From Gemmatimonadaceae bacterium (GTDB taxonomy: Bacteria; Gemmatimonadota; Gemmatimonadetes; Gemmatimonadales; Gemmatimonadaceae): a DNA stretch of 64,000 nucleotides. Positions 1 to 53,223 of the stretch are shown here, piece after piece; position 1 is the stretch's first letter; every line of letters begins with the position of its first letter. The notes under the pieces are model-generated. The model was given only the letters and a program-made list of their open reading frames with translations, had not been told where the DNA came from and did no database searches. The stretch covers positions 4,569 to 68,568 of the forward strand of contig DASRAP010000433.1 of the NCBI GenBank assembly GCA_035638155.1. Reading direction: 5' to 3'. Both the position numbers and the translations under genes were made by a program.

Positions 1-725
1 CACGTGTCCATGCCGACGACGCCGTCGGGCTGTAGACCGTGATAGGCGATCTGGAACGCCTTGACCTTGGCGGCAGTCTTACTCCCGTACCAGCCGTCAT
101 CGTCGATGCCCACGACGCGCTGGACGCGCTTGACGTCTTCGCCCCGGCTCGGGATCGGCACGAGCCAGGACCACTTCAGCACGCGCGCGAGCGGATCGAA
201 GCCGTCGGGCATCTTTTCGCTGAGTGCGACCGCGGCGCGATTGACCGCCGAGCGGAGAGCCGCGTAGTGATGCGCGACGCGCTGCGCCTTGGTGGCGCCG
301 AAACCCCGATAGTAGTTGGTGTCGTAAAGGGCTTCGCTCACCGCATACAGATCGCCGGTTTTGGCAGCCTCGAGCACCGAGGGGCGCTTCACGTACATCA
401 CGCGCACGAGGTCGGCCCAGCCGACCTCGGGGGTTGCGTAGCGCCGGAAGCACACCTGATAGGGCACGTTCGTGCCGGTGTTGGTCGGGTTGGTGTCCGT
501 GTAGAGAAAGCTCGTTGCCGGATTGCAAGGTGGATTGCCAGCCTGGATCGCGCCGATGTTGTTCGAGCCCGCGCCGTCGCCGTGCCAGCCGGCGCCGTAA
601 TCGGTCTCGAGCCAGCCGACACCTTGGCAGGCTTGCAAAACCGCGCGCAGCGGCTCAGCCTGGACGCCGAAGTTTTTTTCGTAGCCGCGCGTGGTGTAGA
701 GGCGCGCGTCTTTGTGCGTCGTCAT
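1..725 (-). CDS. Peptidoglycan hydrolase (endolysin-like); C-terminus runs off window start
   Basis: ATG at 725-723 behind AAGGAGG. My translation is stop-free to position 1; the ORF is absent from the track because it has no stop in the window. LETDYGAGW..NNIGAIQ..CFRRYATPEVGWADLVRVMY looks FlgJ/GH73-like. C-terminal VQRVVGIDDDGWYGSKTAAKVKAFQIAYHGLQPDGVVG fits PG_binding_1. Confidence 0.75.
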   Translation of the reverse strand, partial: MTTHKDARLYTTRGYEKNFGVQAEPLRAVLQACQGVGWLETDYGAGWHGDGAGSNNIGAIQAGNPPCNPATSFLYTDTNPTNTGTNVPYQVCFRRYATPEVGWADLVRVMYVKRPSVLEAAKTGDLYAVSEALYDTNYYRGFGATKAQRVAHHYAALRSAVNRAAVALSEKMPDGFDPLARVLKWSWLVPIPSRGEDVKRVQRVVGIDDDGWYGSKTAAKVKAFQIAYHGLQPDGVVGMDT

Positions 726-3938: not shown

Positions 3939-4559
3939 TCACCTCAAGAGCAGGGCAGCAAGACCGAGCACCGCGCCGACGATCGCAAGGACGCCCACCG
4001 CCCCAATGCCCTCCGAGCTCGGCGCTGACGTGATCGGCGCGGGCGGCGCCGGTAGGGGCGTCTGATTCGTCGGAACCGGAACCGGGATCGGTACGGGCAC
4101 CGGAACTGGTTGAGGTTGCGTGCGCGGACCGCAGGCCGCGAGACAGGTCGCGAGATTCGCGAGATCGCCCGCGTACTTCTGTTGACACGCAAGCGCGCAG
4201 TTGACGGATGGCGCCGGAACTTGGCCGGGATTGATGACGCCCTTTTCCACGCCCCATTGCAGAAGCGCCTGGAGATGCTCGGGCTTCAGATCGATCCAGG
4301 TGTACGAGCCGGGCGCGGGGAAGACCGCGGGCTGCTTGTTGTTGGCCTTCCACCAATTGGCGAAGCAGGCGAGCGCGTTTCCATCGCGCGTTTTCCACGT
4401 GGTCGGATCGACGTCGTCCGGCTCGAGGCCGTAGCCGGTGACGCAATTGTTGCCGTCGGTTGCCACGAACGAAGCGAGCAACGCCTTGGCTTGCGCGTTC
4501 GAGGGCGCGTCGAGAGCACCCAAGAAGTCGACTTTCTTTTCTAGCCAGCGCATGCCCAT
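3939..4559 (-). CDS. C-terminally TM-anchored paralogue of 2283..3932 (206 aa)
   Basis: MGMRWLEKKVDFLGA tag. FVATDGNNCVTGYGLEPDD..FANWWKANNK repeats the domain of the neighbouring gene. PVPVPVPIPVPVP linker. C-terminal TM GAVGVLAIVGAVLGLAALLL. Confidence 0.7.
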   Translation of the reverse strand: MGMRWLEKKVDFLGALDAPSNAQAKALLASFVATDGNNCVTGYGLEPDDVDPTTWKTRDGNALACFANWWKANNKQPAVFPAPGSYTWIDLKPEHLQALLQWGVEKGVINPGQVPAPSVNCALACQQKYAGDLANLATCLAACGPRTQPQPVPVPVPIPVPVPTNQTPLPAPPAPITSAPSSEGIGAVGVLAIVGAVLGLAALLLR

Positions 4560-4562
4560 GAC

Positions 4563-5141
4563 TCACCTCGAGAGAAAGAATGCCGCGAGGCCGATCACGA
4601 TACCCGCGATCGCGAGCGCCACGCCGGTGCCGCCGCCGGACGCCGCGGGCGTCGTAGAGCTCGCGGGCGGCGTCGTCGTGCCACCACCGCCGCCAGATCC
4701 GGGACGGGGGATTTTCTTACCGCCGGGCGTGCCTTGCGTCGTGGGACCGAAGCCGCACTTCTGGCCGCACTGAATCGCGGCGGCTTTGAGCGCCGCTTCG
4801 TCGGTGCCTACCGCTTCTTGCTGGAAGGCGTCCATACATGCGTTGAAGCACGGGCTCACCTTTGCGCCGACCTTCTGCATTTGCTCGTGGTCGACCAAGA
4901 TCCCCGCGCCGCACGCTTCGGTCATGCACTGGTTCACGCACGGCCAAATCAGAAGTCCGCCCCAGCCGCCGATGCCGATCGCGGTGCAGATCGCGTAGCA
5001 GGCGTCCTGGTTATAGAGGTTTGCCTGGCACGCGGAAGTGGTCGGCTCGGTGAAAAGTCCGACGCCAACAGGCGCAGCAAGGCGGCCGTTCCAGCGAACT
5101 GAGGAACGCGGGCCGACCTGGCCGCGCCAAGCTACGATCAC
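4563..5141 (-). CDS. Cys-rich C-terminally TM-anchored protein (192 aa)
   Basis: GTG at 5141 in GTGA overlap with the stop of 5138..5509. (M)IVAWRGQVGPRSSVRWNGRL parallels MIQSWSGQVALRPNGRL. 10 Cys. TM VALAIAGIVIGLAAFFL. Confidence 0.6.
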   Translation of the reverse strand: MIVAWRGQVGPRSSVRWNGRLAAPVGVGLFTEPTTSACQANLYNQDACYAICTAIGIGGWGGLLIWPCVNQCMTEACGAGILVDHEQMQKVGAKVSPCFNACMDAFQQEAVGTDEAALKAAAIQCGQKCGFGPTTQGTPGGKKIPRPGSGGGGGTTTPPASSTTPAASGGGTGVALAIAGIVIGLAAFFLSR

Positions 5142-5509
5142 GGGTTTGCTCTCATGTGCCCGCGTCCGCCCGCGAACATGATCGCCGCGGCGACCGCGAG
5201 CGCTCCGCCGAGCAACCACACGATCACAGGGACGCCCGCCGTCGCCGACGAGCTCGCGGGCGCGGGGGCCGGCGCGGGAGTCGGGGTCGGCGTCGGCGCG
5301 GGGACCGGAATGCCGGCGTTGATGACTTCGCCGATTTTAGCGGGGAGCTCCGCCGGGGTGAGGCCGCACGCCTTGAGGCACGGCTCGATGCACGTGAGGA
5401 ACGGGCGAGCGTTGGCGCACGATTGCGCGCAAAGCGCCTCGCAGTTCGAGAGGGCGCCGAGGCGCCCGTTCGGGCGGAGGGCGACTTGTCCTGACCAGGA
5501 TTGGATCAC
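5138..5509 (-). CDS. Cys-rich C-terminally TM-anchored protein (123 aa), paralogue of 4563..5141
   Basis: GTG start in GTGA overlap with the upstream stop. 6 Cys. PAPTPTPTPAPAPAP linker. TM VPVIVWLLGGALAVAAAIMF. Confidence 0.65.
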   Translation of the reverse strand: MIQSWSGQVALRPNGRLGALSNCEALCAQSCANARPFLTCIEPCLKACGLTPAELPAKIGEVINAGIPVPAPTPTPTPAPAPAPASSSATAGVPVIVWLLGGALAVAAAIMFAGGRGHMRANP

Positions 5510-6717
5510 GCTGCCGCCCTTCTACGCTTCGGGGCCGAGCGCCGACGCTTTTGCGAACGAGCTCGCGCCGCGCGCGCGGGCTGCTTCGGGAGGTTCGGGG
5601 CACGCATGCCCAAGAAGATCGCGCCGATGGCCGCGCCGATGCCGAGTAGCCAACCCCATCCGGAGCCGCCACCGATCCCGGCGGTGGTTGCCGTGGATTC
5701 GCAAGATCCGTCAGCTGCGCGCTTGTAACCCGTCGGGCACTTGTCGACGCACGATCCGGACACGCACTCCTTGGTCGGATCGGTGCACGGCGTTGCGGGC
5801 GTGCACTCCGGAGCGGGCGGCGGAGGAGCACCACCGCCGCTTCCCGCTGCGGCTTCGCACTCGTTCAGTTGCTGTTGGATTTGGTTGACCTGCGCTTGCG
5901 CTGCGTTTCGCGCTGACACTTGTCCGGCATATTGCGCGTCGAGAGCTTGGCCGGTGGCCGTGTCTCCGTTTTGATACGCCGCGATGCGCGCGGCATCGAG
6001 GTCGACGATGTAGCTCTTGATTCCCGCCAGTTTTGCCTTAGCGGCCTGCAACTGAGCATTTAGCGCGTCGCACGCTTCGTTTTGCCCGAGCCGCCCCTCG
6101 CCCGGACCGAACAAGAACGGAACCGGCGGGCGCGTGATGCGCGTCTGAAATTGCGTGGTCGTGACGGTCGTTCCGCCGAACGGCTGAGTCCCGAACGGGC
6201 TCAGCGGGATGCTTCGCCGAAAGAACGACGTGAACGGGAACGGATAGACGAACGGGATCGGATTGGGCGGAGGCGGCTGGTAGTTTCCGATCGTCGTCTT
6301 GACGCCGTCGTAGGTGCAGTACGAGACCGGCTGCATCAGGATGTTGGTCTTGGTGTACGAGCCGCACACGGCCTTGTATTTCCAGACCGGAGTGGCGCCC
6401 GGTGGAATGCCGCCCGGCTGCCACGAGTTGAACGCCTGCGTGATGCCCGCGTAGCCCTGCGCGTGCGTTCGCAGATGCGGCCCGCTGGTGCCGACGAGCT
6501 GGCCGTTGTTGTAAAAGTAGTAGGTCCAGTACTCGAGCTCGTAAGGCGCACCGACGCCTTCCTTCGGTCCGAGCAACTGCTGAGGCCCGCCGGCTCCGCC
6601 GCGATCGTGCAAGAACACCGGCCGGAGATTCGGCGGCATCACCGCGCTGCCGAAGTACGCTCGCGCGCTCGGTCCGGTTTGCGTCTTCACCGGGTCAATC
6701 CATTTCACGAGCGCCAT
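5506..6717 (-). CDS. Beta-rich + coiled-coil + Cys-cluster protein with C-terminal TM and polybasic tail (403 aa)
   Basis: Start moved to ATG 6717 (MALVKWIDPV), a 1-nt TGATG overlap with the upstream stop. Ala/Gln heptad-like stretch. TM WGWLLGIGAAIGAIFLG. Tail RSQKRRRSAPKRRR. Confidence 0.7.
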   Translation of the reverse strand: MALVKWIDPVKTQTGPSARAYFGSAVMPPNLRPVFLHDRGGAGGPQQLLGPKEGVGAPYELEYWTYYFYNNGQLVGTSGPHLRTHAQGYAGITQAFNSWQPGGIPPGATPVWKYKAVCGSYTKTNILMQPVSYCTYDGVKTTIGNYQPPPPNPIPFVYPFPFTSFFRRSIPLSPFGTQPFGGTTVTTTQFQTRITRPPVPFLFGPGEGRLGQNEACDALNAQLQAAKAKLAGIKSYIVDLDAARIAAYQNGDTATGQALDAQYAGQVSARNAAQAQVNQIQQQLNECEAAAGSGGGAPPPPAPECTPATPCTDPTKECVSGSCVDKCPTGYKRAADGSCESTATTAGIGGGSGWGWLLGIGAAIGAIFLGMRAPNLPKQPARAARARSQKRRRSAPKRRRAAA

Positions 6718-7607
6718 CAGCGTGGTCCTTTCGGTAAATCTTCGCAGCACGGGAAAAGCTCGACGGCCAAGCCGCCCGCGACTCGTCCGTAAACGACCGG
6801 CAAGGGTGAATCGAGCTCCTCGAAGGCAGAGACGAACTGATCCTCGGGGCGACCGACGCCCGCAGGGATGTTGAGGCCACAACGGCTGACCGGATTGGTC
6901 TGATGCACCGAGGCGTAGAAGGTCACTCGCCCAGGGCCGAGCACCGGGATCGAGAGCTCGCGCGCCGTCGGGTCGAGATAGCGCATGTCGCGCCACGTCC
7001 CGAGCAGGTCGACGTCAGCGCCAGGCGGGATGCCGGCGCCGGGGGGCTTGTACGGCAGGAACGGCGGCACATAGAGCAACGCCGCATCCTGGCCGCTCAT
7101 CGAAGGGCTCGCGCCGTCCGGTTGCGCGGGATCGTTGACCGACTCGGGGGAGAAGCGGTGGGGCTCGTAGCGCAAATGCCAGGAGATGTTTCCGTCCTGG
7201 AAGTGCCAGCCGGGGGAAGTGATCTCGAGCTCGACCGGGACCGGTCCGCACTCGGTGCTGCGCGATTGAGGCACGGTGCGAATCGTCGCGTACTGCCAAA
7301 TGCCGCGGATCACGATCGCGCGCTTCTTGTCGATTTCGACTTGAAGCAACCGAATCAAGTAGCGCTCAGCTTGCGATCGCGTCGCGTTGTCGGGCACGCG
7401 CACGCCAAGCGCGCTCGTGTCTCCCAGCCACGGCGTCGAACCGATGCCGAGCAAGTCGGGATCGAACGACTGCGTGAAGAGCTCGATCACCGCGCGGCAG
7501 TCCCAACGCGGATCGGCGCTCCCCAAAAACGAGGGATGGCCCACGACGCCCGCGCGCTTGGCGCGCTCGGCAGAGAGAGAGATTACGGATTTGGCGTTTG
7601 CCGACAC
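6717..7607 (-). CDS. TM-free structural candidate (296 aa), possible vertex/minor capsid protein
   Basis: GTG start behind AAAGGGGAA. Real CDS by composition. The function is inferred only from position after the two other capsid-size ORFs. Confidence 0.4.
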   Translation of the reverse strand: MSANAKSVISLSAERAKRAGVVGHPSFLGSADPRWDCRAVIELFTQSFDPDLLGIGSTPWLGDTSALGVRVPDNATRSQAERYLIRLLQVEIDKKRAIVIRGIWQYATIRTVPQSRSTECGPVPVELEITSPGWHFQDGNISWHLRYEPHRFSPESVNDPAQPDGASPSMSGQDAALLYVPPFLPYKPPGAGIPPGADVDLLGTWRDMRYLDPTARELSIPVLGPGRVTFYASVHQTNPVSRCGLNIPAGVGRPEDQFVSAFEELDSPLPVVYGRVAGGLAVELFPCCEDLPKGPR

Positions 7608-7621
7608 GGGCTATTCCCCTT

Positions 7622-8335
7622 TCAGGGGCAGCCCGGCCCCAAATCCCTCGGAGCGAAAACGCCCTCTGCCTGGAGCTCGTCGATGATCTGCGTGAAGTCG
7701 CAGCCGTTGTAGAGACCGGTCGGAAGCCGCGTCCCGTGAAAGGTGATAATCGCCTCGGTCGGTACTTCGTCGGCTTGAAGAGTGCGGAGGTTCGTGAAGA
7801 GGGCGTCGAAGGTGGCTGAGCACTTCAAGACCAGGCCGGCGGGGCAGACGCACTCGAAGACCGCTTCGATGTTCTCGAGGGGGGTCGGCTCGGTGTTGAT
7901 CAGGTAGTTGCAGAACGAGTGGATGATGAGCGAGTTCAGGTCGATGTTGGGGTTCAGGCGATTGAAGTAATCGGACTGAGCCTTCCAGATCGATCCTGCC
8001 GCGAAGTTCGGGCGGCGCACCGTGTAGGTGACGCGCCGGATCCAAATGTCGCTTTCGACCGTGCCGAGCATCTGACCCAGCACGGGCTTGTCCGCCGTGG
8101 TCGCATCCCAACGCGCTTTCACGCTGAGCATCACCCAGCCGTTGGTCTCGGTCACCAGCCAGCCGTCGCCAGCCATGCGGTAGCCGAGACCCTTTTTCGC
8201 GGCCTGCAAGAGCGTGTGCGCCAGCCGTGGCTCTTGGAGGGCGATCCCTCCGAGCCATTGCGGCGCCGCCGCTCGGCGCGCCCGGGCGAGCGCGGCCGAA
8301 ACCTCGTCGCCCGGAGCTGTGTTGGGTGCGTTCAC
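7622..8335 (-). CDS. TM-free structural candidate (237 aa), possible single-jelly-roll/penton-like protein
   Basis: GTG start 41 nt after the stop of 8377..9561. No TM and no motif. Functional call is positional inference. Confidence 0.4.
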   Translation of the reverse strand: MNAPNTAPGDEVSAALARARRAAAPQWLGGIALQEPRLAHTLLQAAKKGLGYRMAGDGWLVTETNGWVMLSVKARWDATTADKPVLGQMLGTVESDIWIRRVTYTVRRPNFAAGSIWKAQSDYFNRLNPNIDLNSLIIHSFCNYLINTEPTPLENIEAVFECVCPAGLVLKCSATFDALFTNLRTLQADEVPTEAIITFHGTRLPTGLYNGCDFTQIIDELQAEGVFAPRDLGPGCP

Positions 8336-8376
8336 TGGAGTGTGGCCTTGCCGATGACCTTACTTACCCGACGACC

Positions 8377-9561
8377 TTACTTCGCCGAGGCGAGGAGGTT
8401 GTCGAATTGCTTCTTGACGTCTTCCGGCAGGCCGTTCAGGGCGCCGCGGTTCGCGATGAGCTTGCTCGTCAGGTACGAGCCGATGCCCACCTGCTGGTAG
8501 AGCATTTCGAGCGCGCTTCCCGAGGTCACTCCCGCGAGGTACTCCACGCAAGCCGCCGGCACGAGGTCGTAGCCCGCGAGGACCGCGCCGATCGTGAAAC
8601 AGCCACCCGGCACCGTGTAGATCCCGGCGTTGCCCGAGCCGCACTCGAGCGTGTCCGTGAACTGGCTGCTCGGCAGAGTCGGAGTGGCGCAGTCGAGGAC
8701 CGCGTCGCGCCGCATCGCCGGGAAGAAGCAGCAATCACCCTCGACGCGCGTGAAACGGACGTCGATGGTCATGCCGGGCAACCAAAGGATCGGGAACGGC
8801 AGCGGATAGCAGCGGTTCGAGATGCCCTTGGTGTGCTGGCTTCCCCACATCGCTTCCGCAGTCGGCGCGGGCATGCACTCGCTACCAGCGGCGGTGTTCT
8901 GGGGGATGAATTGCTTGTTGCAACCCTTGGCCACGAGCACGTCGTTGACGTCGCGATTGAACGGAGTCGTCGAGATGAGCGAGGTGCCGCTCCCGACGAA
9001 TTCCATGGTCGCTCCGACGAGACCCATGACGTGGGCCGCTTCCTCGAAAATCTGGAAATGCCGTCCGATGAACATCGAGACGCGGTACGCCTGGAAGAAC
9101 TTCTCGATGATGTTCCAGGTCGGGTAACCCCATGCGAGCACCGCGTTGTGCTCGTCGAGCGCGCCGGTGCATCCGGTCACGCAAGGGGTCGGTCCGCCCG
9201 AGGCGACCACGTTCTTCATGACGCCCGTGAGCGCGAAGCCCTGGCCCTCTGCGGTCGCCAAGATGCCGAAGCCCATCATGAGGAACGGAGTCTCGACGGT
9301 CGTCCCGCGCGAGAGATTGGTCTGGCGACCCGGGCACGCTTGCGGCTGGTCGAGCGTGAAGAGTCGGATTTCCCCGGGGAATGCCGCGTCGAATTCCTCG
9401 GGCGTCATCGGCAGTTGGTACTGCGCGATGTCGTAGAGGCGAGCGGTCAAGCGCGAGAGCGGGCTCTTGCCGGCCGTGATCTGGCCGAGGATGCCGCCCT
9501 TGTGGGTCGGCTCGATCTGCGAAAACTGCTTGTGGTCTGCCTTGATAACTTCGGTCGCCAT
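8377..9561 (-). CDS. Candidate major capsid protein (394 aa, 12 Cys)
   Basis: Largest TM-free late ORF, preceded by the only ~100-nt gap of the late operon and an AAAGGA leader. Gly/Thr/Val-rich. Size is typical of double-jelly-roll capsid proteins. The CDS is solid; the fold is unverified. Confidence 0.45.
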   Translation of the reverse strand: MATEVIKADHKQFSQIEPTHKGGILGQITAGKSPLSRLTARLYDIAQYQLPMTPEEFDAAFPGEIRLFTLDQPQACPGRQTNLSRGTTVETPFLMMGFGILATAEGQGFALTGVMKNVVASGGPTPCVTGCTGALDEHNAVLAWGYPTWNIIEKFFQAYRVSMFIGRHFQIFEEAAHVMGLVGATMEFVGSGTSLISTTPFNRDVNDVLVAKGCNKQFIPQNTAAGSECMPAPTAEAMWGSQHTKGISNRCYPLPFPILWLPGMTIDVRFTRVEGDCCFFPAMRRDAVLDCATPTLPSSQFTDTLECGSGNAGIYTVPGGCFTIGAVLAGYDLVPAACVEYLAGVTSGSALEMLYQQVGIGSYLTSKLIANRGALNGLPEDVKKQFDNLLASAK

Positions 9562-9663
9562 TTTCTTTATCGATCCTTTTTCAGCGGGGCCGGCCGGTGT
9601 ACGTGCGCGGGCGACCCCGATGAATAAACGTGTTGGAGCAAACTTTTTGGTGAATTTTCGCGA

Positions 9664-11514
9664 TCAGACTTCTTGCGGCGCTTCGTCCATGTTCCAGAAG
9701 GAAATGGTCCCGGAGGGTCGCTGACGAGCAACAACCTTCTCGGGCTGTTGCGGCTGGCCGTTCGCCTTTTCAGGGGCGGCGCCGGCCATCGTTCCGGCGG
9801 CGGTCATGACCGTCGTCGTGGGGGGCGTGATCAACACACGCTCCGGGCCGCCAGGAATGGGAGCGATGGTCTCGGTGACGACCGTGCCCGAGGGGACATA
9901 CGGAGTCGACGGAACGAGCGGCACACCGGCGGGGACTCCGCCTTTGCGCTGTTCGACCACCAAGCACATGCCGTACGGCAAGCGCACCGAGTTTCCGACC
10001 ACCCAGTAGGTGTCCGGAGTGCCACCATTCATGGCGGAGACTGCGTCGATCGAGACACCACCGGCGGCGGCGATTTCGGCGAGATCATCGCCGACTTCCA
10101 CCTCGTAGGTGCACTCGGTGTACGGGCGGTAGCTGTCGCCACAGCCCGGACAGAGCGATTGGCAGTCGCTGTAGCAACCGTCTTTTCCACCGCACGATTG
10201 GCAGTTTCCAAGACGGTTCGTTTGGAGGAACGTCCGCGGATTTTGGCCGGAACCCACACTGCCCGCGGGGTCAGTTAGGGCTTGCGCTTTTCCCTGGGGG
10301 TTTGCTCCCAAGACCGCGAGGTTGGTCGTCTGGTCGCCGAGGGGCGAGTTGATCTGAGACGCTTCCCCTTGCTGGCCCGCCGAAAGCGAGGGCACCGTCG
10401 CCCAAGCCTTGAACGACGCATCGATCGCCTTCTGCACCGAGTCCTGCTCGAGTGCGTACATGCGATTCGCGAAGGACATCGGCTTCGCCGGGTCGACCTT
10501 CAGGATTGCCGGCATCAGGTACCAGTTAGCGAGCTTGAGGAGCGCGTTCGAGCCGAAGCCGAGCGCGATACCCGAAGCGAGCCACGGGATGATGCCGCGA
10601 CCGCGCGTCCAAGCTGCGAGGCCGAGGGCGACGACGCCGCCCACAACCTGCACGCCGAGGCGCGTGGCGTCCGGCCGGCGGTAGATCGCGGCAGCCGCGT
10701 CTGCGCCGTACCAGGCATTTTTGCCGTCCTTCGGCTTCATGGTCGCGACGACGCGATCCACGAAGTCGGCGACCAAGAGCCCGATCGCCACGCCGGCCGC
10801 AGCCGTGCCGTACCGAACGAGGTTTTCTCGGGTGTAGGGGCTCGCGGGATTCGAGAGAAGCCCGCCGATCCCGGGATTTTCGAGCATGGCCATTTCGCGG
10901 CGGGTCAAACCACCGGCGAATTTGCCGCTGCGCGTACGTTTGTACTTGCAGGGCGGGCAACGCCGACGCGAAGACCGGCGGCGCGAAGCCGCTCGAGTCG
11001 TCCGGCGACGCTTCCGGCCTCCACCGTGGCGGCGTTTCCGCCACCCCTTCCGGGCCGCTCGAGCATGCCGGCGGGGCTGACCCGGCCAGGCGTTCTCGAG
11101 GGTCACGGTGGTCGGATTTTCGTTCTGGGCCGCGGCGGCCGCTCGGCGCCGCTTCGGGCGTCGGCGTGCCTTTCGGCGGCGGCGGCGGTTCTCTTCGTAC
11201 CGCCCACGATTGTCCGCGACGCGGCGACGCTTGGCGTAGCGACGCTTTCGCGGATTGGCCGAGGCGCTCGCAGCGGCGCGGCGGCGACGGCCACCACGCT
11301 TCTTGCGACGAGCGGCTTGCGCCTTTCGGATGTTCTTTCGAGCAGCAGCGATCTGAGCGCGAGTTGCCATCTTGTTCTCTTCGTGGGCCTTCAGCGCGTC
11401 AGCACGACGCGGCGATTTGATGCCAGGATTTTCGAGGTAACGAGCGATTTGCGCTTTTACGCGCAAAGCGACTTTCGTCGGCTCCGCACACGCACACGCC
11501 ACGTTTCTCGCCAT
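9664..11514 (-). CDS. Polybasic + multi-TM + Cys-cluster + LysM protein (616 aa)
   Basis: The first ~215 aa are Arg/Lys-rich (RRKKRGGRRRR, RRRRRKARRRPKRRR, GGGRKRRR). Then 3-4 hydrophobic helices and CQSCGGKDGCYSDCQSLCPGCG. YEVEVGDDLAEIAAAGGVSIDAVSAMNGG..VVGNSVRLP fits the LysM pattern. Start is uncertain (11514 or ATG 11370). Confidence 0.7.
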   Translation of the reverse strand: MARNVACACAEPTKVALRVKAQIARYLENPGIKSPRRADALKAHEENKMATRAQIAAARKNIRKAQAARRKKRGGRRRRAAASASANPRKRRYAKRRRVADNRGRYEENRRRRRKARRRPKRRRAAAAAQNENPTTVTLENAWPGQPRRHARAARKGWRKRRHGGGRKRRRTTRAASRRRSSRRRCPPCKYKRTRSGKFAGGLTRREMAMLENPGIGGLLSNPASPYTRENLVRYGTAAAGVAIGLLVADFVDRVVATMKPKDGKNAWYGADAAAAIYRRPDATRLGVQVVGGVVALGLAAWTRGRGIIPWLASGIALGFGSNALLKLANWYLMPAILKVDPAKPMSFANRMYALEQDSVQKAIDASFKAWATVPSLSAGQQGEASQINSPLGDQTTNLAVLGANPQGKAQALTDPAGSVGSGQNPRTFLQTNRLGNCQSCGGKDGCYSDCQSLCPGCGDSYRPYTECTYEVEVGDDLAEIAAAGGVSIDAVSAMNGGTPDTYWVVGNSVRLPYGMCLVVEQRKGGVPAGVPLVPSTPYVPSGTVVTETIAPIPGGPERVLITPPTTTVMTAAGTMAGAAPEKANGQPQQPEKVVARQRPSGTISFWNMDEAPQEV

Positions 11515-11525
11515 GCACGAAAAGA

Positions 11526-12113
11526 TTATGGCCAGCGAAATCCGTGCTCGTCAACAATACAGCCGCGCGGAAGCGGCAAACGCCACCCCAAAGTGCGCTT
11601 GCTATAACGCACCTCAACGGGCGGATCGTATTCGTGCTCGAACGGCTTGTCGAAGCCCGGACGCCGATAGCGAATGAGACGCACGCGCGCTAAGCGCGCC
11701 CACGGTCCCTCGGGAATTTCCACCGATCCGTAAGTGAGAGGAAGTGGGCGGTCGTTCTGATCGACGAAGTACTTTTCTGCGTCATCGAGCACGTCGCCAG
11801 GTGCGTTTTTCGCACCTCCTCCGCGCGCTCGAACAATATACAAATCGCACCGGTCCAAAAGTGCGCCGGTCGTGTCGTGCACGAGCACATACCCCCGCGG
11901 GAAGGTCACGTCGGCCGCCGGCATGCGCGGTTCCCAGAAGACTTCGCGCTCTCCGTTTGGACCGGTCGCGCGCACGATGCGGCGCGCGCCGGAGTTTCGC
12001 ACGCGTTCGACGGACACGAATTGGATGTTCGTGCCGCGCACGATCATGTGGTGCGTGTAACACGCACCGGTCGTGCAATCTTCAGCTTCGACGATGCGGC
12101 CGGAGTCCGTCAT
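11526..12113 (-). CDS. Hypothetical protein (195 aa)
   Basis: MTDSGRIVEAEDCTTGAC.. with protein-like composition. TAATG coupling to the upstream stop. No motif recognised. Confidence 0.7.
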   Translation of the reverse strand: MTDSGRIVEAEDCTTGACYTHHMIVRGTNIQFVSVERVRNSGARRIVRATGPNGEREVFWEPRMPAADVTFPRGYVLVHDTTGALLDRCDLYIVRARGGGAKNAPGDVLDDAEKYFVDQNDRPLPLTYGSVEIPEGPWARLARVRLIRYRRPGFDKPFEHEYDPPVEVRYSKRTLGWRLPLPRGCIVDEHGFRWP

Positions 12114-12979
12114 TAGGCCGCTCGCGCCAATTGACGACTCGGCGGAAGCGCGCGCGAGCTCGAGCGCGCACCCGCAGGCGGCACCAAGCGCACGAGTGCG
12201 TAAAGCACACCGAGACCGAGCGCGACCAGCGCGACGGTCTTAATCGTGTTCGTGATGTCGGTAGTGGGCTGACTGCCGGCTTTGATTTGCTCGACCTTCT
12301 GCGCGCGCACCGCAGCGGCGCCGGTGTAGATCGATTGATTGAGCTTCGCGGCTTGGTCGGGCGTGCATTTTCCGGTCGTCACGCACTCGTAGGATTTTTC
12401 CGCGATCGTGCGCATCGTCTTTTGCTCGGCGACGTCAGTGATGTTGTTGACCGCTTTCTCGACCGCCCAGTACGCGGGCAGAGCGAGCACCGTGACGCCC
12501 AAGGTGGTAGCCCACACGATCGCGGGCACTCCGACTTGCCCTTGCACGTGCGTTTGCTCACCCGCGGGATTCACGATGATCGGCACGTCGCCATTGAGCG
12601 CCAAGCGCACGACGTCCGATGAGAGCCCCTCGATTTCGAATTGATTCTTTTCCGTGTTCCAAGCGACTTTGCGCTTTCCGGCGATCGCGTCGTTTAGGGC
12701 GTCGGTGATGATCTTCACCATCGCCATCGCGTCGACTGCGTTCTGATCGAGATCCGAAGACCACGCCGACGCGCTCGACATGCCCGGGACGGCGCCACCC
12801 TCCGGGCCGGCGCCGTCGACCAGGAACGGCAGGCCGAGATTCTGCCGGACCGTCTTTAGCCCGGTGTAGGCGGCGACAGCTCGCGTCCACGAGCCTTGCA
12901 GGTTGTCGCGGAGCGCCGTGAGGTACGCTTCCCAGGCTTTTTCGTCGGCCGGCTGGCCCAGCCATCGCAGCTTTTTCAT
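12113..12979 (-). CDS. Membrane protein (288 aa, two TM helices)
   Basis: Start moved to ATG 12979 (MKKLRWLGQP tag). TM helices VPAIVWATTLGVTVLALPAYW and IKTVALVALGLGVLYALV. Confidence 0.65.
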   Translation of the reverse strand: MKKLRWLGQPADEKAWEAYLTALRDNLQGSWTRAVAAYTGLKTVRQNLGLPFLVDGAGPEGGAVPGMSSASAWSSDLDQNAVDAMAMVKIITDALNDAIAGKRKVAWNTEKNQFEIEGLSSDVVRLALNGDVPIIVNPAGEQTHVQGQVGVPAIVWATTLGVTVLALPAYWAVEKAVNNITDVAEQKTMRTIAEKSYECVTTGKCTPDQAAKLNQSIYTGAAAVRAQKVEQIKAGSQPTTDITNTIKTVALVALGLGVLYALVRLVPPAGARSSSRALPPSRQLARAA

Positions 12980-13137
12980 TTGTTGAGTCTCGCTCGGTAG
13001 ATGTTGATTGCCAGGGAAGTCGCTGAAATCAGCAGGCCCACGATCGCAAACCACTCGATCCGCGAGAGCCTATGGCCGTCGCCCGGGATTTCCTCGGGAG
13101 CGGCGGAAACCTGACCGGACCAGCGCAAAATGGCCAT
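12976..13137 (-). CDS. Small TM protein (53 aa), not in ORF track
   Basis: MAILRWSGQVSAAPEEIPGDGHRLSRIEWFAIVGLLISATSLAINIYRARLNK has the N-tag plus one TM. High GC3. The stop overlaps the next start (ATGA). Confidence 0.5.
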   Translation of the reverse strand: MAILRWSGQVSAAPEEIPGDGHRLSRIEWFAIVGLLISATSLAINIYRARLNK

Positions 13138-13147
13138 CGCTCGCCCT

Positions 13148-14140
13148 CTAGAGTAGCGCCCAAATCACGAGCGCGACAATGCCGGCGCCGATCGCCAAGG
13201 GCGCGATGCTCGATCCGCCGCCTCCGCCGCCGCTCCCGGCGGCGGCGACATTCTTGAAGTCGATCTGCGATTTCAGCTTTTCGATGAGCGGCTCCATCGA
13301 TTTGCTCGGGAGCTCCGTCAAGCACTGCGGATCTTCACCGTGCATGTTGCTCGGCGTCTTCGGGTCGAAGACGTTGAAGAACCCCGCTGGGCAGTCGCCC
13401 TTACTCTGAAACCAGCTCGAGGCATTCTCCATGCGCCCGACCGCGAACCAATCGATCGGCTCGCCGGGCTTGGCGATGGGGCCGAAGTTACCGTTGAAGT
13501 AGGTCAGCCAAACGTAGTCCTTGCAGGTCAGCTTTTCGTTGACGATGCCGAGCTTCTTGGCCACCGCGCACTCGTCGAGCGCCGTCTTCGTCAACTCGAA
13601 CTTCTCATACGCTTGCGCCGCCGCGTAGCGCTCGGCGCTCGGCGCAAACTTCGAGAACACCGGCGCCGGTGGCAAGCCCGCTTCAGTCAGCGCCACGTCG
13701 GAAGCGCCTTGGCTGATGGCCAGATCGCGGAGCGTCAAATACGACTTGACGGCAAGGATGCCCTTGGCCGCGCGCTTGGCACGCGGGGCGGTGAAGTCGT
13801 TCCAGGTTTCCGAAACCAAGTCCTCCATGGTCGATCCCTTGGCCACAGGGATCGATTTTCCGATGAAGCCGCCGATGATGCCGCCCAAGATCGCGCAGCC
13901 GCCCGCGACTGGAGCAGTCACTACGAAGGCCGAGCACGCCGCAGCGCCACCAATTGCGCCGCCCACCTCGCCGTAGGCTTTCAGATCCGCCGAGCTCGTG
14001 CCGCCCTTCCGCTCGATGATCTCTCTCGTGAGCGGATTGGTTGCCTTGTCCATTCCGGAATACGCGCCGAGGCCGACGGGCCGCCTCGAGCTCGGCGAAA
14101 GCACGAGCGGGACAGACGCATTCCAGATAAGGGCGGACAT
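13148..14140 (-). CDS. Membrane protein with Gly-rich hydrophobic segment and C-terminal anchor (330 aa)
   Basis: MSALIWNASV tag. GGAIGGAAACSAFVVTAPVAGGCAILGGIIGGFIG segment. C-terminal GGGGGGSSIAPLAIGAGIVALVIWALL. Confidence 0.7.
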   Translation of the reverse strand: MSALIWNASVPLVLSPSSRRPVGLGAYSGMDKATNPLTREIIERKGGTSSADLKAYGEVGGAIGGAAACSAFVVTAPVAGGCAILGGIIGGFIGKSIPVAKGSTMEDLVSETWNDFTAPRAKRAAKGILAVKSYLTLRDLAISQGASDVALTEAGLPPAPVFSKFAPSAERYAAAQAYEKFELTKTALDECAVAKKLGIVNEKLTCKDYVWLTYFNGNFGPIAKPGEPIDWFAVGRMENASSWFQSKGDCPAGFFNVFDPKTPSNMHGEDPQCLTELPSKSMEPLIEKLKSQIDFKNVAAAGSGGGGGGSSIAPLAIGAGIVALVIWALL

Positions 14141-14159
14141 CGCCTCACCAGTTTAAGAG

Positions 14160-14906
14160 CTAGCCGGGACAGCGAGCAAGCGTGAGCGCTCTTTCGAGCG
14201 TCCGATCACCCGGCTTCCACACGACGCGAGCTCGGAGGCCGCGCAAGCCGTCAACGCCAATGAAAACGCCCTTGTCGACGAAGTTTAGCCGGTCGGGATC
14301 GAAGGACCTTCCGCCGCCCGCGCCGATGCACACTTCGTCGTCGCAAATCACCTTCACGTTTGGGACGGAGAGGATCCGCTCGTAGGTGAAGGGGACGCAT
14401 TTGCCGAGCTGGTAGTCGGTCGACGGATCGCCGTAGTGCCAGCGGCCGTCCAAGTGCGCGGCGCACAGCACGTGCTCGATGTTGTGCTCGTCGTCGTACG
14501 CATGGCCCACCACCAAGGTGTGGATCCCGACGGACATCCAAGCCGCGCCGAGGAGCGTCGCGACGCCGTCGCAATCGTCGCCACGAATGCAAACCTTGTT
14601 GGGGTTGGTCTTCGGATCGCACGCGAGCAAGGTCGCCGCCGGCATGTATTCGGCCCCGATTGGGTCGGGCACCCATAATTTCTTCTGGACGGCGGAAAGG
14701 AGAATGCGCGCGCGGTCGTTCGGGGTCTTGGCGCTCGAGAGGCCGCGTTCGCGGGCCACGTCGAGCATTTCGATCGCCCAAGTGCGCACGCCCGGATCGA
14801 TCGCGCCCTTCGAGACGCGCTTGGCCACTTCGTCGAGCGAGCTATTGACGCCCGCTTTGCCGAATGGGTGCTCGCGTTCGGTTACAGCAGTCCAAGGGGC
14901 GGGCAT
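14160..14906 (-). CDS. Transglutaminase-core / papain-like cysteine protease candidate
   Basis: GDDCDGVATLLGAAWMSVGIHTLVVGHAY..EHVLCAAHLDGRWHYGDPS fits the Cys-His-Asp transglutaminase-like core. Confidence 0.6.
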   Translation of the reverse strand: MPAPWTAVTEREHPFGKAGVNSSLDEVAKRVSKGAIDPGVRTWAIEMLDVARERGLSSAKTPNDRARILLSAVQKKLWVPDPIGAEYMPAATLLACDPKTNPNKVCIRGDDCDGVATLLGAAWMSVGIHTLVVGHAYDDEHNIEHVLCAAHLDGRWHYGDPSTDYQLGKCVPFTYERILSVPNVKVICDDEVCIGAGGGRSFDPDRLNFVDKGVFIGVDGLRGLRARVVWKPGDRTLERALTLARCPG

Positions 14907-14923
14907 CGATTCAGTGTAACCCG

Positions 14924-15238
14924 CTACTTGACGGGCGTCAGCAACGCGCGCGGAAGCGACCAGCCGCGGGTCAATCGGTCATGGACGGTCGACTTCTTGA
15001 ACCCGAACGCGCGAGCCTTGGCGGCGACGCTGCCGCATTTCTCCCACGGCTTGAAACGCCGGAAGCCGAGCTTCAGCGCTCGGCGACGCCGAGCTCGACA
15101 GTCTTTACACTCGCCGCGCCGGCCATCAGCGCAACGGCCATCGCGCTGGAATTCATCGATCGGGAGCCACAGGCGACAGCGCGGATTGTTGCACCGCTTC
15201 AGACGTCCAGACCGCGGCTCGACGCGCGGGATCTCCAT
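14924..15238 (-). CDS. Zinc-ribbon + HTH-like DNA-binding protein (104 aa)
   Basis: RCNNPRCRLWLPIDEF..GECKDCRARRR ribbon, the same type as the N-terminus of HNH 22451..22882. This is followed by KSTVHDRLTRGWSLPRAL. Confidence 0.55.
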   Translation of the reverse strand: MEIPRVEPRSGRLKRCNNPRCRLWLPIDEFQRDGRCADGRRGECKDCRARRRRALKLGFRRFKPWEKCGSVAAKARAFGFKKSTVHDRLTRGWSLPRALLTPVK

Positions 15239-15489
15239 CAGCCGGTTTTGCCGCTGGCCACGCTCGAGGCCGCCTCGGCGAGCTCCCGCGTGACGCCTTC
15301 CACGAATGACACACGCCCCGGATCTTCCTCACCGGGCACCTCGGCGTTGATCGCTCGCACGGCTTCGACGAGCTGCGCGGCGTGCTCGGGGCGCATCATG
15401 ATCGCGACTTGCATCTGCACGAAGCGCCCGGCGGCGGCGGGTTCGCAAGCGACGCGGATGGTGACGTCCTTGGTCTGGTAGGTGTTCAA
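15238..15489 (-). CDS. Possible small protein (83 aa, TTG start)
   Basis: C-terminal part of track ORF 15238..15900 (..VTIRVACEPAAAGRFVQMQVAIMMRPEHAAQLVEAVRAINAEV..). TTGA overlap with the upstream stop and an AGGAA leader. The stop is coupled (TGATG) to 14924..15238. Confidence 0.35.
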   Translation of the reverse strand: MNTYQTKDVTIRVACEPAAAGRFVQMQVAIMMRPEHAAQLVEAVRAINAEVPGEEDPGRVSFVEGVTRELAEAASSVASGKTG

Positions 15490-15926
15490 TGGAGATTCCT
15501 TTCGGGGTGGGCGAAGTCTATGTGTGCTGCGCACGCGGCGGAGCACACCGCTTCGTGGTCTTCGTTGACGTACCAGTCGTGCTGGAAGGACACCCATTTG
15601 TGATCTCCGAGCACGACCACTTCGGATTTCTCGCCGCAACAGGCGCAGGTCACCGGCATCAGGACGATGCCCTTTTCGCGCGCGCGCTTCTTCCAGTAGT
15701 TCAGGAGAGGTTGGGCGAGGAGACCGTGCAGCGGCCAGATCATCAACTGCACGAGCAGGCCGACCATCGACCACAAGAGCACCCAGGCGCGCGCGGTCGG
15801 CCAGCGGCGCATCTGATTTTTCACCACGCTCTTTACGCCGCGGCCCACGTCGGGATTGACGAGAAAAAGGAGCGCCTGGCCCGCAATCCCGCCCAGCCAC
15901 AACCAGAAAAGCAACGACACGATCAC
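15486..15926 (-). CDS. Membrane protein with C-terminal Cys/His cluster (146 aa)
   Basis: Three hydrophobic helices, then VTCACCGEKSE..HEAVCSAACAAH. ATGA overlap with 15923..17818. Confidence 0.65.
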   Translation of the reverse strand: MIVSLLFWLWLGGIAGQALLFLVNPDVGRGVKSVVKNQMRRWPTARAWVLLWSMVGLLVQLMIWPLHGLLAQPLLNYWKKRAREKGIVLMPVTCACCGEKSEVVVLGDHKWVSFQHDWYVNEDHEAVCSAACAAHIDFAHPERNLH

Positions 15927-17818
15927 GCTCCGTCGGAAGGAGTGACCGGAGCGATGAAGTCGGGCGGAGGCGGAAGCGGCTCGGCCTTCTCGGGCTCGGG
16001 TGCAGGCGGCGGTGGCGGAGGCGGCGCCACGGGCGCGCTCACCATGACGTGGCCGGGCGGCGGCGTGTATTGCGTCTGCGTGTATTGCGACGCCGGCACG
16101 AACGGAGGAGCGGGTGGAGGGGGAGGCGGCGGAGGTTGCGCCACGAACGGTGCCGGCGGCGGTGGCGGTGGCGTCACGAGCGGCGTCGCGGTGCCCATGC
16201 GCGCAGCTTCCGCTTTGATGACTTCGGATCGCGCGATGCGCTCTTGAGCCGTCGCCACGCGCTCGAGCACTTCGGCGCTCTTGATCTGCGCTTCGGCCTT
16301 CAGCTTCGCGGCTTCGGCTTCGCGCGTGATGATGTCCATCTGATCTTTCTTCCGCTTGTCCATCATTTCGACGAATTCCTTGACCGCGGCTTTGCCGAGG
16401 TCTTGGAACTTGTCGAAGTTCGAGGCGACGAAGGGACCGAAGCCCGTCACCATTTCGCCGTCGATCGCCGTTACGCGAAACGGCCCGACGTCGCGGACCT
16501 TGAGCGGGAAGTCATCGTCGGCGGCGGGATTTTCCCGGTGTTCCGGGGTTTCACTCTTTTCAGGGGCGAGCGCCTCGCGCGTCTTGCCCATGAGGTTCGA
16601 GAGCTCGAGCACCGATTGCACCGATTGTCGGGCCGCTTCCATCGGCGTCAGTTGCACCGGAGGCGGCGCCGGTTTTTCCACTGGCGCCGAGGCGGGCTGC
16701 TGGAGAGGGGACCAGGCCGAGCCGTTCCAGACGATCCATTGGCCGTTCCAGAATATCGGCTGACCAGGGGCGGGGCCGGCTTGCTGTTGCTGTTGGGGTT
16801 GCTCGCGGCGGGCGGCGGAGAGCTCGGCGACCAGGCGGTCGTTCATGGTGATGAGGGCGGCGATCGCGGCGTCGTTGGTCGGCGCCGCGGCCGGCGGCGG
16901 GGGAGGCGGCGGCTGGTGCTGCTGGTACTGCGGGCCGGCTACGCCGCTCGGTGGAGGCGGATACTGCGGACCAGGCGCGCCTTGGGGATACGCTGGCGGC
17001 GCACCATGCGCGGGCGGGTAGCCCGGAGGCGGATACGGCGCGGGAGCGGATTGAGGAGGAACGGCCCCCGGGGGATATCCATAACGCGGATCGTACGCTT
17101 GCTGCGGAGGGTAGCCAGCGGGCGGGTAACCCTGCGGCGGATAGCCGCCTTGGGGCGGGTAGCCTTGCTGCGGCGGATAGCCGGGAGGAGCGCCGTAGCC
17201 GCCTTGCGGCGGGTAGCCTTGTTGCGGCGGGTAGCCGGGCGGGGGGTAGCCGTTTCCTCGCTGACTCATTTCTCGGTCCTCTTCCTGCCAACGCGGATCG
17301 TCGAGCATGTAGATCATGCCCGTTGCCCAACATGGCTCCGTCGAATCTCCGATGGTCCACTTGCAAGTGCACTTCTTGCCCTGCGTGTATTCCGCTACAA
17401 ATCGCTGGAGGTCCCGCCACTCACGCAGCGATTCCACCGGCACCACGGGCAAGTGCGCGCGCGTCGGCTCCGTCATCATGATCGTGACGGACGAATTTGG
17501 ATGGAGCATCACCGCTTGCTGGTAGCGGAGCGGGAAGTCGGCGTTTAGCTTGACGTTGCGATCGCCACGATGCTTCTGCGCGACCTGGCCGCGATACTGC
17601 TGAGATATGACGGCGGCGGTGCGATCGAGCGGAATATTGAGCGCGTCTTCGGGCGAGACTTCGACTTCGTCTCCGATCGGCATGCTGTGAGCGTCAACCG
17701 GGAAGCCGTTGACGACCGCCTTTGCCGAGTCTTGGAGATCCGGCGGCGGGGCGGGCGGGTGACGCACGCGCGCGTCGCCGTTGGTTCCGTTTTCGAGACG
17801 TTTTCGACGACTTGCCAT
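15923..17818 (-). CDS. Pro/Tyr/Gln/Gly-rich low-complexity late protein (631 aa)
   Basis: Globular N-terminal ~185 aa, GYPPQQ/GYPPQGG repeats, a Lys/Glu/Ala helical segment, and two poly-Pro tracts near the C-terminus. Confidence 0.7.
   Translation of the reverse strand: MASRRKRLENGTNGDARVRHPPAPPPDLQDSAKAVVNGFPVDAHSMPIGDEVEVSPEDALNIPLDRTAAVISQQYRGQVAQKHRGDRNVKLNADFPLRYQQAVMLHPNSSVTIMMTEPTRAHLPVVPVESLREWRDLQRFVAEYTQGKKCTCKWTIGDSTEPCWATGMIYMLDDPRWQEEDREMSQRGNGYPPPGYPPQQGYPPQGGYGAPPGYPPQQGYPPQGGYPPQGYPPAGYPPQQAYDPRYGYPPGAVPPQSAPAPYPPPGYPPAHGAPPAYPQGAPGPQYPPPPSGVAGPQYQQHQPPPPPPPAAAPTNDAAIAALITMNDRLVAELSAARREQPQQQQQAGPAPGQPIFWNGQWIVWNGSAWSPLQQPASAPVEKPAPPPVQLTPMEAARQSVQSVLELSNLMGKTREALAPEKSETPEHRENPAADDDFPLKVRDVGPFRVTAIDGEMVTGFGPFVASNFDKFQDLGKAAVKEFVEMMDKRKKDQMDIITREAEAAKLKAEAQIKSAEVLERVATAQERIARSEVIKAEAARMGTATPLVTPPPPPPAPFVAQPPPPPPPPAPPFVPASQYTQTQYTPPPGHVMVSAPVAPPPPPPPAPEPEKAEPLPPPPDFIAPVTPSDGA
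16918..17254 (-). repeat. In-frame GYPPQQ / GYPPQGG degenerate tandem repeats
   Basis: aa ~189-300 of 15923..17818: GYPPPGYPPQQGYPPQGGYGAPPGYPPQQGYPPQGGYPPQGYPPAGYPPQQ... Confidence 0.8.
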
Positions 17819-17830
17819 TTTGGTGCGCTA

Positions 17831-18172
17831 TCAAGTAACCACGGGCTCGGACGCCGTCACGGCCGCCGGCATCAATGCGGCGAAGATTCGACCGAAGAGA
17901 TTGCGGGTCGCCTTCTTCAAGAGCTCGTCCGTTGGGAAGGCGTAGTTGCCTTGGGCTTCCACGTCATAGATCAGGCGGCGGCGGATTTGCCCGGAGAAGG
18001 GCGAGGCTTCGGTGATGTCGTCCGCGAGGTTTAGGCCGATGAGGGCGGCGGTCTCGCCGTTGTGATCGAAGACGATGGTGCTGGCGGCTTTGAGGAAGAG
18101 TTTCGTGCCGGGACCGGACGGTTGGTTTCCGACGTTGAGGTCGTAGATGAGCTCGATTTGGTTTGCCATCAC
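17831..18172 (-). CDS. Hypothetical protein (113 aa)
   Basis: MMANQIELIYDLNVGNQPSGPG... ATGA overlap with the stop of the RHH gene. Confidence 0.65.
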   Translation of the reverse strand: MMANQIELIYDLNVGNQPSGPGTKLFLKAASTIVFDHNGETAALIGLNLADDITEASPFSGQIRRRLIYDVEAQGNYAFPTDELLKKATRNLFGRIFAALMPAAVTASEPVVT

Positions 18173-18387: not shown

Positions 18388-18406
18388 TTTTCTAGGTGAC
18401 CTCCAT

Positions 18407-19036: not shown

Positions 19037-19236
19037 CGATTACCGGCTCGCTTTCCCAGTGCACAAAATAGACACAAGCTCGGCGGGAGCGCCATAGGCC
19101 ACAAAAAATCACGGCCACCTCGATCGCCCCGGCGGGTGGTGTTGTTTCCCTATATGGGAGACTCCGCCGAGCGCAACAGAAGTGGCCGAGACGAGAATCC
19201 GCGGTGAGCAGTCCTCGACGGCGAGGGTAGGCACTC

Positions 19237-53222: not shown

Positions 53223-53223
53223 G

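Follow-up and report, generated by a model that had tools for sequence, protein, structure and literature searches.

Three adjacent genes of a circular 73.5-kb element from soil as candidate capsid-shell genes of a tailless virus

Background

Few tailless, membrane-containing phages have been cultured, such phages are badly under-annotated in metagenomes, and SSIP-1 has stood alone since 2012. The shell of SSIP-1 is described as having two types of major capsid protein (MCP) of the vertical single-beta-barrel kind (PMC6356626, PMC4958249, PMC5332951), and in the literature that we searched no relatives of SSIP-1 were described. Upright single-jelly-roll shell proteins encoded by adjacent genes are also known from the Helvetiavirae P23-77 (VP16/VP17), HCIV-1 and HHIV-2 (VP7/VP4) (PMC4958249, PMC8812541). 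The MCP of SPV1 (Sulfolobus polyhedral virus 1, Portogloboviridae) is a single jelly roll, and this virus lacks a genome-packaging ATPase; FLiP likewise combines a jelly-roll capsid with the absence of a packaging ATPase (PMC8812541). In this report, we analyze three adjacent genes, called the trio, that code for proteins of 394, 237 and 296 amino acids (aa). They lie in a 64,000-nucleotide (nt) stretch of contig DASRAP010000433.1 (positions 4,569 to 68,568), which we call the window.

With moderate confidence, we conclude that the trio forms the shell module of a virus without a tail and probably with a membrane, whose shell would be built from several single-jelly-roll proteins in an architecture related to that of SSIP-1 and the helvetiaviruses. 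Direct observations are the open reading frames (ORFs) themselves, their synteny, beta-sandwich models, lists of structural neighbours, a homologue of the SSIP-1 protein gp34, the circularity of the genome and a lack of signatures for HK97-type proteins and for ATPases.

Results and discussion

A conserved gene trio

The three ORFs are consecutive and tightly packed on the minus strand (Table 1), with spacers of 41 nt (394/237) and 14 nt (237/296). An earlier prediction, made from the window alone and called the original prediction here, had proposed these three ORFs as capsid-shell candidates that lack transmembrane (TM) segments. The ORF list and hydropathy agree. A Kyte-Doolittle scan detected no TM segment in the 237-aa and 296-aa proteins, and the single hydrophobic stretch of the 394-aa protein (residues 321-339) is a beta-hairpin (E314-332) in its AlphaFold model, where the blocks have a predicted local distance difference test score (pLDDT) of 83-92. 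The trio was further held to comprise the only sizeable late proteins without TM segments. This is not the case, as proteins of 195 aa (11526-12113) and 631 aa (15923-17818) also lack them. The GC content at third codon positions (GC3) of the trio is the highest among long ORFs of the window (0.87 for the 394-aa, 0.84 for the 237-aa and 0.80 for the 296-aa protein), which is compatible with high expression.

Homologues of all three proteins were found in metagenomes (23 for the 394-aa, 76 for the 237-aa and 41 for the 296-aa protein). An exhaustive HMMER search of 1.84 billion proteins with a profile of the 394-aa protein identified 147 representatives, each standing for a cluster at 50% identity. 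The 237-aa protein is the most conserved of the trio, and its homologues always adjoin the other two genes. Moreover, the trio is part of a block of four genes whose order is kept. The first codes for an arginine-rich (Arg-rich) protein with TM segment(s) and a LysM-like domain (approximately 410-490 aa as called), and the others for proteins of approximately 400, 240 and 265-296 aa. We observed this block in the related loci L001, L008 (contig DNA_vOTU_520, 85 kb), L015 (a 112-kb contig) and L017, and its synteny persists down to 32% identity of the 394-aa protein. The 296-aa protein is 48% identical to the product of the syntenic gene in DNA_vOTU_520, and four IMG/VR contigs carry the trio module.

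The hosts of these elements could not be assigned. The 296-aa profile recovered three contigs of metagenome-assembled genomes (MAGs) whose labels are discordant, namely Nitrospira, Parcubacteria and Planctomycetales (L016, L017, L018), and the 237-aa profile found no relative in 185,579 species genomes. The three related contigs are probably viral contigs that were mis-binned into MAGs. The scaffold labelled Parcubacteria has a GC content of 59% and the same four-gene block.

The trio did not match any family or sequence in Pfam, PHROGs, NCBIfam or the sequences of the PDB, nor, by tblastn and blastn, any of 50,697 phage and 72,556 plasmid records. PHROGs searches with every member of the trio families, and Pfam and PHROGs searches with 108 distant members of the 394-aa family, also returned nothing. 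Profile searches against PDB and PHROGs had been proposed at the outset as a check; they gave no match for the trio, and the PDB sequence and profile searches were either empty or produced chance matches (nucleoporin SEH1, E about 1). Alignment of the three families with one another by hhalign revealed no recognizable paralogy.

Predicted structures

AlphaFold2 models were built from the family alignments and compared by using Foldseek with the PDB and BFVD. In the model of the 394-aa protein (pLDDT 77.4, predicted TM-score (pTM) 0.75), a jelly-roll-like beta-sandwich core (residues about 40-335) lies between an N-terminus that is disordered and a C-terminal arm that is helical. Within the core (about 40-340), pLDDT is 80-94 in most blocks of 10 residues. 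The 296-aa protein is modelled as a beta-rich sandwich (pLDDT 79.9, pTM 0.82). Both models thus consist of beta-sandwiches plus a few helices. The 394-aa protein contains a Walker-A-like sequence (GQITAGKS, residue 26), which we do not accept as an ATPase motif, since it falls within the disordered N-terminal part and shows no conservation.

Viral jelly-roll capsid proteins dominate the PDB neighbour lists of both models, with all matches below significance. The list for the 394-aa model includes human papillomavirus L1, polyomavirus VP1, SPV1, PR772 P3, and nodavirus and birnavirus proteins. Capsid-protein chains of HCIV-1 (6h9c) and HHIV-2 (6h82) have the highest probabilities in the list for the 296-aa model (0.41-0.66, TMt 0.34-0.46) and are also sub-threshold. 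One match of the 394-aa model is significant, namely that to BFVD entry I1ZBH9 (211 aa, E 6.3e-4, probability 0.99, TMt 0.42). The adjacent accession, I1ZBI0 (256 aa), also matches this model, with a probability of 0.51. The genome of SSIP-1 (JN880423), a membrane-containing icosahedral phage, encodes two structural proteins side by side, gp46 and gp47, of exactly 211 and 256 aa. Given these lengths and the order of the accessions, I1ZBH9 and I1ZBI0 are presumably gp46 and gp47.

A second, independent link to SSIP-1 is provided by the 248-aa transglutaminase-like protein encoded upstream of the trio, which may be a virion-associated protease or peptidase. It is a homologue of gp34, a structural protein of SSIP-1 (phmmer E 2.3e-8, BLASTP E 1e-11), and SSIP-1 was its sole match in a tblastn search of the 50,697 phage records (2.3 Gb; E 5e-5, 87% coverage). 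Its gene is conserved in L001 and L015. This homology is the only sequence-level tie to a characterized virus, and it consists of one gene, as the other 56 SSIP-1 proteins have no match in this genome.

The presence of PR772 P3 among the neighbours raises the question of whether the 394-aa protein is a PRD1-like double-jelly-roll MCP, with the 237-aa and 296-aa proteins serving as a penton base and a minor or cementing protein. The 394-aa protein is close in size to the PR772 P3 chains (379-392 residues), these chains give the highest query-normalized TM-scores (0.21-0.22, probability 0.13-0.16), and the model, with about 14 strands and two helices flanked by strands, exceeds what a single jelly roll needs. 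However, the PR772 matches are far below significance, and the sole significant match, at 211 aa, has the size of a single barrel. The two helices (146-158 and 199-211) are only approximately 50 residues apart, an arrangement that seems unlike one FG helix per barrel. In addition, we detected no packaging ATPase, and prokaryotic double-jelly-roll genomes are reported to be <20 kb (PMC8812541), as compared with 73.5 kb here. We therefore regard a double-jelly-roll MCP as improbable. Several shell proteins of the single-jelly-roll type agree better with the data, and the division into one MCP and penton or minor proteins, as in the original prediction, is conjectural.

The neighbour lists also contain a GH12 cellulase and legume lectins below threshold, and one could imagine that the trio is non-structural, for example, a set of carbohydrate-binding or hydrolytic jelly-roll enzymes tied to sugar modification. 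The genome does encode a GDP-mannose dehydratase, methyltransferases and glycosyltransferase-like proteins. Nevertheless, searches with Pfam, NCBIfam and PDB profiles, including those based on 130 sequences, recognized no enzyme family, and conserved catalytic-type polar residues are not evident, the invariant positions being mostly Gly, Pro, Phe and Asn. Also, the trio is located inside a module of membrane and lysis proteins, 50 kb from the sugar genes. We give this explanation very little credence. An enzymatic or non-jelly-roll fold, the outcome that would have spoken against shell proteins, was not seen, as both modelled proteins are beta-sandwiches with jelly-roll capsid neighbours.

The proposal of a capsid shell is thus borne out in part, by the beta-sandwich models and their jelly-roll capsid neighbours. 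It is favoured further by the genome as a whole, in which no alternative capsid machinery of the HK97 type was found. Pfam and PHROGs scans of ORFs across the circle revealed no HK97-fold MCP, portal, terminase or tail tube.

Several observations weigh against a shell module of single-jelly-roll proteins. No PDB match is significant, the best E-values being 0.12 (394 aa) and 0.022 (296 aa), with TM-scores of 0.2-0.46. The sole significant structural match is itself a predicted model whose identity as gp46 we infer, and gp46 and gp47 are putative MCPs of SSIP-1. Generic beta-sandwiches (the GH12 cellulase, lectins and TNF-like ligands) occur in the neighbour lists too, and hhalign comparisons with P23-77 VP16/VP17 and SSIP-1 gp44-48 gave probabilities of at most 16%. 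Packaging genes are a further difficulty. A packaging ATPase of the FtsK/HerA type, in most cases encoded beside the MCP genes, is a hallmark of the helvetiavirus lineage. In P23-77, an ATPase gene adjoins those of the MCPs, whereas this genome is without an ATPase-MCP-MCP core, and the Walker-A protein gp40 of SSIP-1 has no counterpart here. The Walker-A pattern [AG]x4GK[ST] occurs in no plausible coding frame of the window, of the 9.5-kb remainder of the genome (taken from L004/L019) or of the 20-kb loci of relatives L001, L008 and L013-L015, and neither Pfam nor PHROGs detected any ATPase family.

Cysteines of the 394-aa protein

A count confirms the 12 cysteines reported for the 394-aa protein, which amount to 3.0% of its residues. 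They had been considered unusual, but this content is no outlier, as most modules of this genome (window 1591-48146) have 2.1-3.2% cysteine. The fibre-like module (50592-58916) has 0.9%, which may hint at another origin or cellular compartment for the fibres.

It had also been suggested that the cysteines reflect disulfide or metal stabilization and that their conservation in homologues be checked. Among the 23 close homologues, cysteines co-vary in sets. C76/C277/C278/C321 are present in 19 of these sequences and jointly lost in the other 4, C214/C291 mostly co-occur, as do C127/C307, and C131/C229/C338 are nearly invariant. Such a pattern would be expected of disulfide partners or metal ligands. 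It does not extend to the family as a whole, however. In an alignment of 130 sequences, most of these positions are cysteine in only 4-22% of members, and the cysteine content ranges from 0.5 to 5.6%. Because the cysteines are absent from most of the wider family and typical of a cysteine-rich genome, we interpret them as optional, lineage-specific stabilization, presumably by disulfide or metal chemistry, and not as a family hallmark. No thiol oxidase was detected.

Surroundings of the trio

The fourth gene of the conserved block, directly upstream of the 394-aa gene, codes for a protein with 105 Arg+Lys. Its N-terminal region is protamine-like and rich in Arg, its C-terminal domain is LysM-like, and it also has TM segment(s). 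The protamine-like region spans approximately 200 aa (especially 10890-11370), of which about half are Arg or Lys, and includes the conserved motif MATxxQxAAxRRNIKKAQAARR. Gene callers begin this gene downstream (409 aa), but the Arg-rich part is in frame with the TM/LysM-like part and is open and conserved in L001, L008 and L015. Matches of the protein to LysM and endolysin-type families are weak. We suggest that it is a candidate membrane-anchored DNA-condensing protein.

Table 1. Positions of the trio and of other features in the window
Feature	Position	Strand	Remarks
403-aa protein: coiled coil, C-terminal TM anchor, basic tail	5506-6717	-	Also called as 403 aa in L003
296-aa protein, candidate single-jelly-roll shell protein	6717-7607	-	GTG start, 5 Cys
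237-aa protein, candidate small shell protein or penton	7622-8335	-	GTG start, 6 Cys
Spacer after 394-aa stop, 41 nt	8336-8376	-	Holds imperfect 13-nt direct repeat
394-aa protein, candidate large capsid-shell protein	8377-9561	-	ATG start, 12 Cys
Intergenic gap upstream of 394-aa gene, 102 nt	9562-9663	-	
Arg-rich/TM/LysM-like gene	9664-11514	-	Fourth member of conserved block; directly upstream of 394-aa gene
248-aa transglutaminase-like protein	14160-14906	-	DCDG...H...D motif; SSIP-1 gp34 homologue, 5 kb upstream of trio
Rolling-circle Rep-like protein, weak	19237-20766		
C5 methylase	22933-24099		
Tyrosine integrase	45078-46172		
Fibre-like proteins	50592-58916		One with Gp80 domain

The original prediction had noted a non-coding gap of approximately 100 nt upstream of the 394-aa gene as the only one in the late operon. 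The gap is present (102 nt), but it is not the sole one; others measure 93 nt (13055-13147) and about 330 nt (near 14907-15237). A gap of 70-107 nt occurs at the same place before the homologous 394-aa gene in L001, L008 and L015, and its sequence is conserved with the closest relative only. A consensus scan of the gap found no match to a sigma-70-like promoter or to a terminator. A hairpin in the gap folds no better than shuffled sequence (z = -0.09) and is not conserved, and was rejected as a functional element.

The tandem repeat that had been noticed after the 394-aa stop is likewise present but is trivial and not conserved in relatives. It reads GTAAGGTCGTCGG-GTAA-GTAAGGTCATCGG and contains AAGG cores that resemble Shine-Dalgarno (SD) sequences; TRF reports positions 8350-8388, a period of 17, 2.3 copies and a score of 57. 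In L008 and L015, only a few bases separate the counterparts of the 394-aa and 237-aa genes. As it is absent from relatives, the repeat was rejected as a functional element and is best read as chance or as an SD-like duplication.

On the other side of the trio, the ATG of the 403-aa gene overlaps the stop of the 296-aa gene (TGATG). Many of the proteins encoded around the trio consist of an N-terminal domain followed by a TM helix at the C-terminal end and a tail of basic residues. This setting bears on an explanation in which the trio proteins are virion-associated beta-sandwiches outside the shell (spike or receptor-binding proteins, membrane-to-shell adaptors or scaffolds), or belong to a pleomorphic or enveloped particle that has no shell. 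The module is indeed dominated by membrane-anchored proteins with basic tails, no packaging ATPase was detected, the structural resemblance is weak, and lectins and receptor-binding proteins often contain sandwiches of the jelly-roll kind. On the other hand, no other shell candidate is detectable in the 73.5-kb genome, and the trio is the most conserved part of its module and has the highest GC3. Its best matches come from icosahedral viruses that contain a membrane, in which they are shell or structural proteins, and separate fibre-like proteins are encoded at 50592-58916. We therefore consider non-shell roles rather unlikely.

The design with a C-terminal membrane anchor recurs in the genome. 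Three proteins (5506-6717, 50592-52433 and 3939-5509, all on the minus strand) have a cysteine-rich or fibre-like N-terminal domain and one C-terminal TM helix. They carry no signal peptide and often have a proline-rich linker. Two of these TM-anchored proteins end in a strongly basic tail, such as RRRRRLPNRRKKR, and these tails may face DNA inside a viral membrane. Farther upstream, the 631-aa protein (minus strand) has GYPPQ-type Pro/Gly/Tyr repeats followed by a coiled coil and poly-Pro tracts, and its gene contains an 18-nt tandem array (17133-17252, 6.8 copies).

The circular genome

The window covers 64 kb of a circular genome of 73,522 bp. Contig SRR6184671_52018 contains sequence identical to window positions 53,219-64,000, continues for 9,522 nt and then returns to window positions 1-197. 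These 9,522 nt, which correspond to L019 positions 10783-20304 on the reverse strand, are the remainder of the genome. Independent assemblies of 73,536, 73,644 and 73,663 bp fit the circle plus assembler overlap, and a variant of about 77.6 kb also exists. We rejected the possibility that the window is a prophage with host flank (sugar genes at 59-64 kb), since one contig joins the two window ends through the 9,522 nt.

In addition to the genes in Table 1, the genome encodes a clamp-like protein, an HNH endonuclease, RadC, NUDIX and a PG_binding_1 lysin. No packaging ATPase, terminase or helicase was detected, which is unusual for a double-stranded DNA (dsDNA) virus of 73.5 kb.

Of the proteins typical of tailed phages (Duplodnaviria), the only matches were of the fibre type (Gp80, phrog_240 and tail-fibre repeats at 53224-56624). 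Two paralogous proteins of approximately 550 aa (54957-58285, minus strand) contain repeated TRTLTAGAGLTGGGDLSA(D/N)RTF motifs that match phage tail-fibre PHROGs. A protein with a Gp80/phrog_240 'head fibre' domain (53224-53808) adjoins them, and together these proteins are probable vertex fibres.

Two regions, 59317-63719 of the window and 4600-10000 of L019, code for GDP-mannose 4,6-dehydratase, an FkbM-type methyltransferase and a C-methyltransferase, as well as three glycosyltransferase-like proteins of 371, 392 and 1039 aa. These genes could serve in glycosylation of virion proteins or in modification of the host surface.

A model of the virion and its implications

Our model, in which shell formation, the membrane, the roles of individual proteins, the cysteine chemistry and the mode of packaging are conjectural, is as follows. 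The element would be a temperate, tailless and probably membrane-containing dsDNA virus from soil with a circular genome of 73.5 kb. The 394-aa and 296-aa proteins would be jelly-roll-type beta-sandwich proteins, the 237-aa candidate is probably alike, and together they might form an icosahedral shell as in SSIP-1 and the helvetiaviruses. If the known helvetiavirus pattern applies, upright single-jelly-roll proteins would stand on a lipid core in pseudo-hexameric capsomers, and one of the shell proteins or a further protein would close the five-fold vertices. The trio genes are predicted to be co-transcribed and translationally coupled with those of C-terminally anchored membrane proteins, and the cysteines of the 394-aa protein could act as lineage-specific disulfide or metal staples. 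The genome would probably be condensed and enclosed during assembly, and not pumped into a preformed shell. We propose this mode because no P-loop ATPase was found and because a conserved protamine-like, Arg-rich domain is present on the adjacent membrane protein.

If the 394-aa family represents the shell protein of soil viruses of 40-85 kb, these viruses would be the first relatives of SSIP-1, and the genome-size range of prokaryotic viruses with jelly-roll capsids would be greatly extended. They would also provide a bacterial jelly-roll capsid without a packaging ATPase, a state discussed as ancestral for SPV1 and FLiP (PMC8812541). The profiles could then recover viruses that are invisible to searches for terminase, HK97 MCP, double-jelly-roll MCP and FtsK ATPase markers. 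A broader and more doubtful proposal is that the elements make up a new lineage, at the family level or higher, of temperate, tailless, membrane-containing soil phages. These phages would have circular genomes of approximately 74 kb, a capsid of three single-jelly-roll proteins, protamine-like condensation and no P-loop ATPase, and would be the first relatives of SSIP-1 from outside hypersaline habitats. At present we put this forward only tentatively.

Comparison with known viruses

PRD1 and PR772 are tailless, membrane-containing phages whose P3 protein is similar in size to the 394-aa protein and has the top query-normalized TM-score in its PDB list, in a match that is not significant (TM 0.22, E 0.25 for PR772 P3). 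The PRD1 genome is linear and about 15 kb (PMC6260650), in contrast to the circular genome of 73.5 kb here, in which no ATPase was found. As for the Bamfordvirae double-jelly-roll viruses of prokaryotes (Tectiviridae, Corticoviridae, Autolykiviridae and Finnlakeviridae), no double-jelly-roll MCP family was recognized by Pfam or PHROGs.

Among the PDB matches of the 394-aa model, the SPV1 capsid chain 6oj0_A ranks third (probability 0.15, not significant). In SPV1, a basic protein condenses the DNA within a core that contains lipid, and the Arg-rich membrane protein described here would be a parallel to that protein. SPV1 has an archaeal host and a much smaller genome, and we found no sequence relation to it.

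With the Helvetiavirae, the element shares many small membrane proteins in one operon and a rolling-circle-type Rep-like gene. The many C-terminally anchored membrane proteins in the trio operon are the sole, and indirect, indication of an internal lipid membrane. The shell candidates differ in being three and larger (394/237/296 aa), as compared with two of 173/291 in P23-77, whose genome is 17 kb, so that the genome here is several times larger. We leave the element outside the Helvetiavirae (Sphaerolipoviridae, Simuloviridae and Matshushitaviridae), because the PDB similarity is sub-threshold, the identity of the BFVD match is inferred, the jelly-roll fold of the 237-aa protein is conjectural and the packaging ATPase is missing.

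SSIP-1 differs in having a genome of 43.8 kb, as opposed to 73.5 kb, in its hypersaline habitat, as opposed to soil, and in shell proteins that have no sequence similarity to the candidates here; the element, moreover, carries an integrase. The two nevertheless have in common a circular genome and consecutive genes for small structural proteins downstream of a gp34-like gene. Both show hardly any similarity to other database entries (PMC6356626), and in structure the 394-aa model comes closest to the presumed gp46 of SSIP-1, with the presumed gp47 matching as well.

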